Shown piece after piece: positions 8,042 to 56,380 of a stretch of DNA of 64,000 bases. The first letter of the stretch is position 1. Every line of letters begins with the position of its first letter. Position numbers and translations under genes: made by a program. The notes under the pieces were generated by a model, which worked only from the letters and a program-made list of their open reading frames with translations, did not search any database and was not told the origin of the DNA. Origin of the DNA: Octopus vulgaris (lineage: Eukaryota); contig OX597818.1 of NCBI GenBank assembly GCA_951406725.2, positions 65,844,001 to 65,908,000 of the forward strand, read 5' to 3'.

Positions 8042-8176
8042 GAGGAATTCACGAAAAAAACAAAAGACGAAGACAGGTGGTGTAGAAAACAATTAGATGT
8101 ATTAGTATAACGCTCGGGAATTAAAAAGTCTTTTACGTTTCGAGCCTGCGCTCTTCTACAGAAGGGAACAGAGAAG
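8042..8176 (-). mobile_element. Short Penelope-like terminal element with a minimal hammerhead (CUGUAGA core)
   Basis: Minus strand ctt-CTGTAGA-a-gagc/gcag/gctc-GAAACGTA-aaag at 8128-8166, ending in cacctgtcttcgtcttttg beside (TA)n; related copies at 50850, 56178 and 60600. Confidence 0.7.
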
Positions 8177-8420
8177 TAGTAGTAGTGGTGGTGGTAGTAG
8201 TAGTAGTAGTAGTAGTGTAGTAGTAGTAGTAGTAGTAGTAGTTGTAGCTGTAGTAGTAGTAGTAGTTGTTATTGTAGGAGCAGTAGTATTATTATTAATA
8301 TTATTAATATTATTATTATTATTATTAGTAGTAGTAGTAGTAGTAGTAGTAATAGTAGTAGTAGTTGCAGTAGTTGTAGTAGCAGTAGTGGTAGTAGTAG
8401 TAGTAGTAGTAGTAGTAGTA
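8176..8420. repeat. (TAG)n/(TAT)n compound microsatellite
   Basis: Directly visible. Confidence 0.95.
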
Positions 8421-9517
8421 AAGGTAACAAGAAATCTCAGTGGAAGATAACATTTGTGAAGCTGATATTGGTGGCCCTGATGAAAAGAAAATATCCTGAA
8501 GTTATGAAAATATGAAGAAATTCCTAGAATAACGTTCATTTGCCATTCTTCTGCCAACGTGAGGGATCAAGATTTATATTTAATTCATGCCATTGTTACG
8601 TGTGTCGCTTTTTTGTTATTTCTCTGGCACTTTTAGTTTTTCTCCTTTTTGTATAAATTTCCGAGAGCTAGATTAGTAGGAGACAGAGAGAGAGAGAGAG
8701 AGAGAGAGATACAGACAGGCAGAGAGACAGAGACAGAGAGAGAGGAACTTAGCCTTATAGATAAATGTAGATAGAGAGAGAAACAAAGGTCGACAAATTT
8801 AGAAAGTGTAAGATACAGAAAGAGTGATGGAAACAGAGACAGAGAGACATACAGACAGAGAGACAGGGAGAACGAGAGCGATGAAGGGAGGGAGATGTAC
8901 AGAGAAATAGAGAATGATTGAGAGAGACGAAGAAGGTGAGAGGGGAAGAAAGAAAGGGAAAGAAAGAGCAAGAGGGGAGATGATTGAGAGATGTAGATAG
9001 AGCGTGCTTGAATTAGTCATATATTAAACGAAATGGCAGGGAACTGTATGAAGTAGTAGAATGCGAGAGCGAGGACGGGATATTTACAGCTCAAATGGCC
9101 AGTGACTTTGCTCTCGCTAATCGTATATTCACAGAACTGGAATCCAATTTCCTTTGTGTGCGCGCATCATTGCACATGAGTGGCTGATGCAACCGAAGGA
9201 ATAGCGCATGATTTGATAATAAGCGACTGGGACCTCATCGCATTCCGAGCAGAAGTAAAAACACTACTGTTTTAGTACATCACCAAAGGAGAAAGTGGAA
9301 GGAAAGCAACGTTGATAACATATTAGCGTTTATTTTCCTTCACTTGGTCCGTAACACTTAGGTAGAAAACGGGACGGAGAAGTCATTGAAACAGCAAAGC
9401 TAAGCTATACGCTCAGGATTTATTACACACACACACATAGAAAATAGAACATACATACAATCACCTTACACACGCTTTACTTGTGGTACAAATATATGTA
9501 CATACACGTATGCGATG

Positions 9518-9835
9518 TATATATATATATATATATATATATATATATATATATATATATATATATATATATATATATATATATATATATATATATATAT
9601 ATATATATACATATATTGTTCTCACTCTATTTCTCTCTCCCTCACTCTACGTCTATATACACACTCTCTCACGGACGCAAGCAGCACACACACACACACA
9701 CACACACACACATATATATATATATATATATATATATATATATATATATATATATATATATATATATATATGTATATATATATATGTATATATATATATA
9801 TATATATATATATATTTATATATACATATATATAT
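9518..9835. repeat. (TA)n/(CA)n microsatellite cluster, one of dozens in the window
   Basis: Directly visible; tracts like this produce the YIYI and HTHT ORFs in the track. Confidence 0.95.
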
Positions 9836-9839
9836 TTTT

Positions 9840-10055
9840 TTTTTCTTTACTACCCACAAGGGACAAACAAGGACAGACAAAAGGATTAAGTCGATTATAT
9901 CGACCCCAGTGCGTAAATGGTACTTAATTTATCGACCCCGAAATGAAGAAAGGCAAAGTCGTCCTCGGCGGAATTTTGAACTCAGAACGCAATGGCAGAC
10001 GAAATACGGCTACGGATTTCGCCCGGCCCGCTAACGTTTCTGCCAGCTCGCCGCT
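9840..10055 (-). mobile_element. tRNA-derived SINE, family A
   Basis: Reverse complement of the 10161-10388 copy with a short internal deletion. Confidence 0.9.
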
Positions 10056-10160
10056 TTATACACACACACACACACACACACACACACACACACACACACA
10101 TACACACACACACACACACACACACACACACACACACATATATATATATATATAATTTAA

Positions 10161-10388
10161 GGCGGTGAGCTGGCAGAAATATTAGCACGTCGGGCGAAAT
10201 GCGTTGCGTATTTCGTCTGCCGTTACTTTCCGAGTTCAAATTCCGCCGAGGTCGACTTTGCCTTTCATCCTTCCGGAGTCGATACATCAAGTACCAATTA
10301 CGCACTGGGGTCGATGTATCGACTTAATCCCTTTGTCTGTCCTTGTTTGTCTCCTCTCTGTTTAGCCCCTTGTGGGTAGTAAAGAAAT
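10161..10388 (+). mobile_element. tRNA-derived SINE, family A (core resembles the Deu/Nin domain)
   Basis: A-box-like tggcagaaatattag, B-box gagttcaaattcc, core gtcgactttgcctttcatccttccggagtcgata...gtacca; more than 10 copies in the window. Domain name is from memory. Confidence 0.9.
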
Positions 10389-10890
10389 ATATATATATAT
10401 ACATATATATATAAATATATGCATAGGCATGTATGCACGTTCATGTGTGTGTATGTTTGTGTTTGTGCGTGTGTGCAAGTATGCATACTTCTATGCGAGC
10501 GTTTGTTTCTGTGAGTGGTTTTCAATTTATGCAAACTGCAATGAACCTGTATGTTCAACGCTTTTGCTTTTTAATACTTTACACTTACAATAACAAGACT
10601 CGGTTCCCTTCCTATGCTGGAGGTTAGGCCATCGACGAGAACCGCTTGAATATCAGCCAAATGGAACGTAGAATAATCTTGTGAGAAGGAAATTATTACT
10701 GAGCACTACAGACATCAAAGAAAAATCCTGTTTCTTACAACGATGCTTTTAAATTTACCTCAATTGTCATCTATGTGTGCACTTGCACGAGATGATATAT
10801 ATATATATATATATATATATATATATATATATTACGGAGATGTACTCGCATAGCAAGTAATTTGATCTGAGATCGTGTGCTGAAACGAAA

Positions 10891-53728: not shown

Positions 53729-53899
53729 ATCACCCAATGGATTTATATGGATAACATCATACAAAATTCTGGTGCATCTAACTTAAGTACCATATTCATT
53801 TGAACCTAAATTTTGCTGAACTTATGTATAAGAATTATTTTGCGTTATAAGATAAAAAAAAACAAGGATGTGTAAATATTAGAGCATTTAAGGATAGAA

Positions 53900-53952
53900 G
53901 GTCTTACAGCTGTTTCTAGAATATTAATTAATAATATTCCTTCATCGGAGAG
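53900..53952 (-). ncRNA. Minimal hammerhead-like motif, CCGAUGA core
   Basis: tct-CCGATGA-a-ggaatatta/ttaat/taatattct-a-GAAAC-agct-GTA-aga. Confidence 0.65.
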
Positions 53953-54559
53953 GGTGTGAGAGGATAGTTAAGTCATTGTTAGTTTCGATGTGATACAAAA
54001 TAGAGGGTGAGGAGGAGGAAAGAAAATAGATTCAAGATATGTATGTGTATTGAAGTTGTAAATCCATCTTTTAGGCATAATGGTATATATACACTATTCC
54101 AATATCCTATGAGTAAAACCCAAAAGTCCAACAGAGTTTAAAATGAGTCCTTCCAAATATAGAGTTTATAAGCAATGTAAGATTCCCATATGAGTGAGAT
54201 CCAGCAGATTTTTAAACTTGGTCATTCCCAGTAGGGAATTTATATACAGTGTTGCAGAGTCAAAGGTTTGTATTTAAAGTGATCTAAATATAGGGAGTGT
54301 ATTAGTAAGGTCAAATCGAAAACAGGAATAGAGTAGTGAAGAAATAGAAAAAAAGAGAAGAGAAAAAGAGAAGAGAAAGAAAAAATGAAAGAGAAAGGAG
54401 AGAAGAAGAAGAAAGTAAGAAGAAGATTAGTTGAATAATAACAAAATAATAAGAAAATTAAAACCCTGAGGAGAGGGATAAAGAGATATTGGGTTTTTAT
54501 TTTTTATTATTTTGTTATTATTTTACTAATCTTCTTACTCCATCTATTTCAAATGCGAA

Positions 54560-54742
54560 GTTCGGGATAAGAGTGAGTTCATAACTACAGCGTCTGTGAT
54601 TAGCTGGTGTTTTAGCATCCCCGAAAGAATGAAAGCGAAGGCCTTTCTCTGTCGGCGTTTGAACTCAGGACGAAAAGTCGGAAGAAATGCCGATAAGCAT
54701 TTCTTTTTCCTGCGCGCTAAACATTCTGACAGTTCGACACCT
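54560..54742 (-). mobile_element. Degenerate family-A-related SINE
   Basis: ccccgaaagaatgaaag..tttgaactcag..aagcattt..ttctgacagttcg. Confidence 0.65.
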
Positions 54743-55841
54743 TTTAGAACTGATACACATGTTGACCCGTAAATATATAAACATTTACAGATGCAACAAA
54801 AAGTGAAATAATAGAATAAAATAATACATTTGTATCAAGTAAGGAACACTTTAAAATTAGAAGTTAATCAACACATTTCCAATACAACCTCGTACATATC
54901 AGTGTCTGTTTGTTGCAAAACCCTTATAACTCATTACTGCATTCAGTTTCATATTCATTAAATTGTACAATTATTCATATCAAAATTGATAGATTTCATT
55001 AAATCAGTTACAAAAATAAATCATTTAACTAATGAGTTTTAAATGGAAGTGTCATATGGCTTCGAACTGTCTTTTCTGTTGTTCTTTTTAAGGCGATGCT
55101 TTTCTATATTTTCATTTTTTTTCATTAATTTGTAGTCCTGATTAGTGATTCATGAAAAAATGTCCCTTTTTATGACTTTATGGAAGCACACGCTTTCCAC
55201 AATCTTTTTTCATCCCGATACACAATCTACCAGCAGTCATAACTTTGTTCTGCATGCTCACTGCCTTCGCCGCTGCGTGACAATCCGCCGAGACTTGTTG
55301 ACTCTGATGTTGCCTTTAGCTGCCAGAATTCTCAAAAGATCGAAAAAAAAAAAATTCCGAATCAGGATATGATGAACAATACCACGTGAAATTAATTTTT
55401 CATTTCAATGGTTACGTTATAGTGATGTTCTGTGTGCCGCTACCGCAGCAGCAGCAGCTGCAGCAGCAGCAGTAGCAGTAGTAGTAGTAGTAGTTGTAGC
55501 AGCATTAGTTGCTTTGCTGCTAACAACGTATGGCCATGTATAAATATGTGTAGAGATTACAGTTTAGCATTTGTTACAGGTAGTCACATAAATTTACTCT
55601 ATAACTATATATATATATATATATATATATATATATATATATATTTATGTGTGTTAACGGTTGGGAAGCCAACGAACAAATGGATAGTAGCAATCTAATA
55701 TAATGCTGGTATTCTATCCAGTTATTAATACCCAAGTGCTGATTATTTTGCAATGTCAATTTTGCAATGTCAATTTTGCAATCGAGTGTCATATATGGGC
55801 GGGGGTAAAATGTGGTTTACCCTCAATTTATACGGTCAATA

Positions 55842-56040
55842 TATTATATTAAATTAGAGATAAAACCACTATTAGGCAAATCAAACAGTGAAAAACATAA
55901 GCCAATACATAAGTTTAATTTAAAAATATAGAAGTTTAAAATATTTTTAACTTTTATATCTTTAAATTAATTTTGTGTATTGGCTTATGTTTTTCACTCT
56001 TTGATTTGCCTAATAGTGGTTTTATCTCTAATATAATATA
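55842..56040. repeat. AT-rich fold-back palindrome (arms about 95 bp)
   Basis: attagagataaaaccactattaggcaaatcaaac..ccaatac is mirrored by gtattgg..tttgatttgcctaatagtggttttatctctaat. Confidence 0.88.
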
Positions 56041-56177
56041 ATATAATATAATATAATATAATATAATATATTTATACTGTAAAATTGGATTTAATCCTAA
56101 ATCTAATTTTTCCCTGTAAGTTTGGATTTATTCCCTAATATTATTATTATATATATATATATATATATATATATATA

Positions 56178-56380
56178 AGGGAAGAATTCACAAAAGAACA
56201 AAAGACGAAGACAGGTGGTGTAGACAACTAACAGATGTATTAGTTTAACGCTCTAGAAGAGAAAAAGCCTTTAACGTTTCGAGCGTATGGTTATGGTCTT
56301 CCACAGAAAGGAACGCAGAGAGAAACAAGGAGGGAAAATAAAGAATGGTTAGTGGTTACCGATCTACTATGGTGATTGAT
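56178..56380 (-). mobile_element. Short element with a minimal hammerhead (CUGUGGA core), 8042 family
   Basis: ccttt-CTGTGGA-a-gacc..gctc-GAAACGTT-aaagg at 56268-56311; (TA)n on both sides. Confidence 0.72.

Follow-up and report, generated by a model that had tools for sequence, protein, structure and literature searches.

The core of hammerhead ribozymes reads CUGANGA, with an A that is normally near-invariant at position 6 and a variable position 7 (N7). The genome of Octopus vulgaris carries a family of hammerhead-like motifs with U at position 6 (U6), three members of which (e1, e2 and e3) lie in the window, that is, the whole 64,000-nt stretch of DNA analysed here (assembly GCA_951406725.2, contig OX597818.1, positions 65,844,001 to 65,908,000). 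This U6 family is real, family-wide and under selection, and its function as a ribozyme is predicted from sequence. By their features, the three window members are classed as decayed 3'-end pieces, from the pseudo-long terminal repeat (pLTR), of one very abundant Penelope-like element (PLE) of Neptune/Nematis type. The function of PLE hammerheads has been called unclear (PMC8557442), and cleavage was dispensable in vitro (PMC11167929). The octopus family offers a natural experiment in which a near-invariant core base has changed and the rest of the motif has stayed under strict selection over ~10 subfamily turnovers, with an A6 sister family as a control. New here are the subfamily ladder, the restriction of variation to N7 and position 17 (H17), the rate of change at N7, and sister subfamilies with U4C and G17 that serve as further controls.

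U6 as the family-wide core state

Genome-wide searches covered 2.8 Gb in 227 contigs. With the remainder of a 25-nt pattern held exact, position 6 was U in 17,792 matches, A in 231 and C or G in 503 (18,526 in total; U6 ~96%), and G made up 11 of 100 among the matches listed for the last class (503 total). Reversed-pattern controls had 0 genome matches, so the abundance of the motif is not a matter of chance. The same exact-pattern test at U4 gave 371 non-U matches. Leaving both halves of the core free returned 19,818 matches; a hand count on 100 among the matches listed found U in 95, C in 3 and A in 2 at position 6, U in 40, C in 25, A in 18 and G in 17 at N7, and A in 78, U in 20 and G and C in one each at H17.

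A profile of the tail alone, chosen to avoid anchoring on the core, was run on the window and on 1.064 Mb in contiguous blocks, which came from a copy-dense part of contig C1 and were partly picked where U6 matches were listed. It recovered 64 copies, of which 56 span the core, with U at position 6 in 51, A in 2, C in 2 and a gap in 1 (U6 in 51 of 55 bases). This 7% departure matches the decay of a tail U (5.3%). N7 was U in 27, A in 11, C in 10 and G in 7, so that all four bases occur, and its entropy over the 56 copies was 1.79 bits; no other core position exceeded 0.45, and H17 (A in 44, U in 9, G in 2) reached 0.86. Downstream of the core, G12 was kept in 54/55 copies, A13 and A14 in 55/55 each, A15.1 in 52/55 and U16.1 in 55/56. 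In contigs of 4/4 runs, under four organism labels, no variant reached 2% or more at C3 to U6, and variants at N7 and H17 were present. An earlier note had observed a shared U6 in the three window copies; the 17,792 exact matches now stand behind it. Neither outcome that would have refuted the note was seen: A6 accounts for just 231 of 18,526 exact matches and so does not form the consensus, and N7 is by far the most variable core position.

The idea that A6 marks a hidden large subfamily was rejected for the most part: copies with A6 turn up at scattered points of the tree, and the arms of one inverted pair (L047) differ at position 6, with A in one and U in the other. A small ancestral A6 layer is nevertheless possible: the 231 A6 matches compare with ~119 U4-to-A controls, an estimate from 32 of 100 among the matches listed (371 total); in the oldest sequence context A6 accounts for 6 of 100 among the matches listed (264 total) and C6 for 8 of 100; and parsimony placed 2-3 internal changes in the position 6 column, for a sample deliberately enriched for A6. 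A sister family, which shares stem II, differs in the loop and has a homologous tail, accounts for 3,758 exact matches; 96 of 100 among the matches listed carry A6. Its stem I shows a compensatory change from C-G to G-C. Since A6 is found both in this sister family and in the general consensus, U6 is likely derived from A6.

The family motif runs from the stem I 5' strand through C3 U4 G5 U6 N7 G8 A9, an additional A, stem II (4 bp, closed by a loop of 4 nt), GAAA, C-G-U and H17 to the stem I 3' strand, and a tail of ~85-95 nt leads from the motif to the (TA)n junction. Stem I has 4 bp, and the motif also contains the ACGU palindrome (15.2-16.2). The register is supported by the kept C3-G8 spacing and a single extra A between A9 and G10.1; an alternative core register was ruled out by this spacing plus alignment to the A6 sister family. 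The family shares much with the minimal hammerheads that metazoan PLEs carry in the pLTR (Cervera & de la Pena 2014, PMC4209133), for which an extra base between 9 and 10.1 and a palindromic 15.2-16.2 were described: a short stem I, the extra nucleotide, G10.1-C11.1, the palindrome, no helix III, motifs in both repeats flanking an open reading frame (ORF) for reverse transcriptase (RT) and endonuclease (EN), and many truncated solo copies. It differs in its U at position 6; against the core definition C3 U4 G5 A6 N7 G8 A9, the other six positions agree. In the accessible part of that paper, the representative rows of Fig. S3 (56 motifs according to its legend) read CUGA or UUGA at positions 3-6, the descriptor demanded a canonical core, and the sole core change reported at family level is U3-A8.

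Longer copies (L035 and L034) extend upstream into a GIY-YIG remnant. In a protein search, the best 150 of 9,277 candidates were scored and 20 of the longest frames were taken; 19 of these 20 loci carry the family motif, all with U6, and the core is deleted in L158. Locus L151 has an 826-aa open frame with an RVT_1 match (E 1e-7; 32.3 bits vs a cut-off of 29.6), followed by a CUGUUGA motif, and the N-terminal part of its ORF lies in another frame. Its Pfam GIY-YIG match is weak (E 0.077, below cut-off), the motif with two cysteines being visible in the sequence, and a C-x4-C-x2-C linker between RT and EN fits the CX2-5CxxC definition. Locus L153 has the layout pLTR-ORF-pLTR: its ORF sits between motifs at 2877 and 7261, both repeats have U6, and the ATG lies ~735 nt behind the 5' motif. 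The mobilising RT that the earlier note invoked can thus be named as a Penelope-like ORF whose flanking repeats bear the same U6 motif. Assigned from its linker and domain layout rather than from an RT tree, the element would be of Neptune/Nematis type with a C-terminal EN. It shares with these clades (Craig 2021, PMC8557442) the RT, the CX2-5CxxC linker, pLTRs, truncation at the 5' end, (TA)n targets and inverted partner copies, and probably also the GIY-YIG domain, in which cysteines lie internally; it differs in its non-canonical core. A non-LTR retrozyme was rejected, as the three window sites have no tandem array and long copies continue into the RT-EN ORF. Head-to-head inverted pairs of the pLTR end occur at L047, L005, L103 and L124, and more distant PLE ORF fragments (L167, L169, L177 and L250; 28-36% identity to L151) lie near or adjoin family copies.

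Rfam at its gathering threshold gave 0 matches across the window, and no hammerhead family was among 48 Rfam matches in L151 (E up to 10). With at least 17,792 exact copies in the genome, the family escapes CUGANGA descriptors and Rfam alike, and counts of animal hammerheads are therefore underestimates. The literature surveyed, to which the supplements of PMC8557442 and PMC3088659 did not belong, contained no natural U6 hammerhead family, and Lunse et al. 2017, on PLE hammerhead variants, may describe it. The accessible parts of bioRxiv 10.64898/2026.07.22.740005, PMC6962438, PMC6765202, PMC6155905 and PMC11014351 held nothing on U6.

Selection on the motif in source elements

A tree of 175 copies, built with positions 6 and 7 masked, has the shape of a ladder. 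It was cut into 11 groups comprising 170 copies, with five basal copies left out and divergence running from 13% to 3%. The consensus of every one of the 11 subfamilies has U6. Along the ladder, N7 reads U, (side branch C), U, C, G, G, A, A, C, U, U. Across the 28-nt motif, only N7 (6 changes) and H17 (3 changes) vary among the consensuses, and the other 26 columns never do. In the flanks, 32 of 50 upstream columns and 26 of 89 tail columns changed, so that 0/26 motif columns compare with 58/139 flank columns (Fisher p 6e-6). N7 and H17 are the tolerant positions of the hammerhead, and the chance that precisely these two of 28 columns should vary is 1 in 378. G8 and G12, both catalytic, are kept, as are the C3-G8 pair and A15.1-U16.1, Loop II and the position of a 2-nt stem I bulge are conserved, and H17 toggles only between A and U at the subfamily level; H17 is the hammerhead consensus (PMC7151607).

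Because the groups had been cut with the N7 labels in view, the count was redone by label-blind parsimony, on a sample deliberately enriched for A6, in which copies had ≤3 mismatches over 20 nt of the motif. N7 had 6-7 internal changes, the highest of 188 columns, and H17 had 2-3; the flank maximum was 4-5, and 25 of the 28 motif columns had none. Since only N7 and H17 vary while the flanks change, selection acts, on this comparative evidence, on the hammerhead shape of the source elements, in which U6 is fixed. The earlier note's proposal of a family-level, non-canonical core under constraint is borne out in this form, the constraint acting on source elements and not on the three decayed window copies. 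Coding constraint on the motif in the 5' repeat was rejected, because the ATG lies ~735 nt downstream.

The turnover of N7 may itself be fast. From G3 to G10, the 4-fold synonymous sites in the 3' part of the ORF underwent ~0.35 changes per site (at most 2 at a site among 70), compared with 4 at N7; this span leaves out G2, whose ORF came from a neighbouring G10 element, and G1, which has two partial copies. Measured against the synonymous rate, the Poisson p is 5e-4; against that of the variable flank columns, it is 0.04. Fast turnover is thus suggested, in a comparison made post hoc.

Cleavage and its alternatives

What could a hammerhead with U6 do for its element? Our preferred reading, held with about even confidence, is that the motif is an attenuated minimal type I hammerhead whose cutting is slow or conditional, that is, gated by dimerisation, protein or Mn2+. 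The window sites are fossil 3' ends of a long-lived Penelope-like lineage with a U6 hammerhead in its terminal repeat. U6 would strongly lower Mg2+-driven cleavage, like A6C. The natural A6C hammerhead of phage Bcep176 (Perreault 2011, PMC3088659; Naghdi 2020, PMC7151607) likewise has a pyrimidine for A6 in an otherwise intact core; it cuts at <0.1/min (PMC3088659), poorly in Mg2+ and with rescue by Mn2+ (0.31 vs 0.0041/min at 1 mM; PMC7151607). It is a single, assayed phage motif with C6, whereas the octopus family has U6 in >17,000 retrotransposon copies known from sequence alone. PLE minimal hammerheads cleave weakly, and in dimeric form (PMC4209133).

For reverse transcription, the likely starting point is in the tail, ~85-95 nt downstream from the cut. 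Low activity might be tolerated or favoured, because fast cutting in the 3' repeat would remove the start of the template, and residual cutting could process tandem pLTR-ORF-pLTR transcripts. Inserted copies retain the tail beyond the cut, hence their templates were uncut at the 3' repeat. A similar arrangement is known from Poseidon PAc of Anolis carolinensis (Frangieh 2024, PMC11167929), which shares the pLTR hammerhead, the tail past the cut that marks the insertion end, and AT-rich targets. There, the hammerhead cuts only with its protein and RT initiates downstream of the cut site. PAc belongs to a different clade, its ORF starts inside the hammerhead rather than ~735 nt downstream, and the accessible text reports no A6 change. 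A conserved segment of the tail, for which pairing to the 3' strand of stem II is predicted, may add an off-state. Both the U6 family and its sister keep it (117/175 and 23/31 copies), and its predicted mean pair probability is 0.16-0.60 vs 0.20-0.57 for stem II; no covariation supports the competing helix.

Several results weigh against cutting, and the two genomic tests among them were negative. First, strict (TA)n junctions show no excess at the cut site, with 12 there and 7-10 at a loop II TA control (hand count of 62 distinct sites, from 100 among the matches listed, 209 total); likewise, no truncation hotspot was found at the cut, where 3/64 tail-anchored copies start at +26 to +30. Second, fusions of the 3' end of U6 small nuclear RNA to the family's cut site numbered 0, in a search with an exact motif and without a positive control. 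In folding, stem I of the monomer is not predicted to form (mean pair probability 0.00-0.34), and minimum free energy folding of six copies, with z-scores of -1.15 to +1.30, gave no support either way. Invariance extends from the core to loop II and to long stretches of the tail, a pattern that suggests recognition of the sequence or by a protein. Core damage is also widespread in the sister family, which fits a loss of catalysis too: a sister subfamily has a fixed U4C core, CCGACGA (7/31 copies: L028, L048, L051, L064, L076, L083 and L085), and an older one has G17 in 24/29 copies among the matches listed (L241-L270, motif near 1635-1660). G17 blocks cleavage under the NUH rule. Finally, single and double CUGA-turn mutants of a type III hammerhead were all weak except for the C3-G8 swap (PMC9901934).

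Because both genomic cutting tests were negative, a non-cutting motif is a close rival, one that we regard as quite plausible though short of an even chance. Here the fold or sequence would be kept for binding the RT or endonuclease, or for positioning RT initiation in the tail, and a ribozyme fold would have been repurposed as a retrotransposition signal. All the points just given, from the junctions to the low activity of the turn mutants, favour it except the folding results, and catalytic mutants of the Anolis hammerhead had no effect on insertion in vitro (PMC11167929). However, G8, G12, C3 and the limit of H17 to A or U have survived ~10 subfamily turnovers, which is more than a binding site obviously needs. 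Moreover, the protein-binding region in Anolis was located in the ORF's first 172 nt and not specifically in the core (PMC11167929), and A6C keeps activity in Mn2+ (PMC7151607).

A bolder version of the attenuated hammerhead, which we put forward tentatively and hold to be rather unlikely, is that PLE hammerheads are selected for tuned low cleavage. U6 would be a brake released by the element's own protein or by Mn2+, N7 would allow re-tuning, and U4C and G17 would be brakes in the sisters.

It is improbable, in our view, that the core with U6 has full activity in its natural setting, with compensation by the extra A, a contact between loop II and stem I, dimerisation through the ACGU palindrome, or a protein. 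U6 lineages are far more prolific than the A6 sister (17,792 vs 3,758 exact matches), and the conserved Loop II and bulge position would suit such a contact; yet no second mutation rescued the CUGA-turn mutants of the type III hammerhead (PMC9901934), PLE minimal hammerheads are weak even with A6 (PMC4209133), and inserted copies contain the tail past the cut. Least credible by far is a DNA-level signal (an internal promoter or endonuclease site) or a founder effect, with the hammerhead likeness as inherited baggage: PLE pLTRs do serve as promoters (PMC6765202) and a founder effect alone would explain a U6 common to the copies of one subfamily, but the variable columns are exactly N7 and H17, stem I covaries between the sister families, and U6 fixation spans 11 subfamilies with diverged flanks.

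Window copies and neighbouring sequences

The three heptamers lie where the earlier note had placed them, and the strands, absent from it, are given in Table 1. The homology that it described is confirmed by blastn: alignments among e1, e2 and e3 span 116-142 nt with 71-80% identity (E 4e-12 to 6e-29); the fourth copy, e4, had been missed. The elements e1 to e3 are 131-199 nt long and end at or near (TA)n tracts. The minimal hammerhead features seen at family level are broken in each: e1 has one mismatch in stem I, stem II of e2 is broken by a deletion plus substitutions, and that of e3 is disrupted by a 6-nt insertion plus substitutions. Since each of the three motifs has damage to stem I or II, these copies are fossils. 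Copy e4 lies behind a tandem duplication (27 nt) of its upstream pyrimidine tract, at 60517-60596.

Table 1. Copies of the U6 Penelope-like family in the window
Feature	Position	Strand	Description	Detail
e1	8045..8175	-	5'-truncated pLTR fragment, subfamily G5/G6 type; end near (TA)n tract	125/131 identity to G6 consensus
e1 hammerhead-like motif	8128..8169	-	minimal type I	core CUGUAGA 8161-8155, then extra A
e1 motif parts	stem II 8153-8142; GAAA 8141-8138	-	predicted cut after A17 (8134)	architecture as in PMC4209133
e2	50841..51021	+	pLTR fragment of oldest subfamily G1, then (TA)n	151/175 identity to G1 consensus
e2 hammerhead-like motif	50893..50933	+		core CUGUUGA 50901-50907; GAAA 50920-50923; A17 at 50927
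e3	56180..56378	-	pLTR fragment, subfamily G4 (G at N7, U17); end at (TA)n	172/193 identity to G4 consensus
e3 hammerhead-like motif	56267..56314	-		core CUGUGGA 56306-56300; U17 at 56273
e4	60571..60706	+	fourth copy of the U6 Penelope family (G7 type)	hammerhead core deleted

Elsewhere in the genome, most copies of the sister family (e.g. L155, L176, L181, L193 and L210) have a fixed 5' start ~75 nt upstream of the core, which may mark a transcription start; the 5' ends of the U6 family are spread instead. No ORF was found directly upstream of the sister copies. An apparent chimera at L046:1440-1640 (+) joins sister upstream sequence to an A6 core with the stem II and tail of the U6 family. 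A third family has a canonical CUGAUGA minimal hammerhead with a longer stem II (L022:2094 (+), L040, L085:1811 (+) and L086).

Two further features lie in the window. The fragment at 20874-22000 (-), which resembles the C-terminal RT region of a CR1/L2-type LINE, had no Pfam match at E 0.1. At 62681-63150 there are 2.5 tandem copies of a 186-nt unit that resembles a SINE-type repeat common in the genome.

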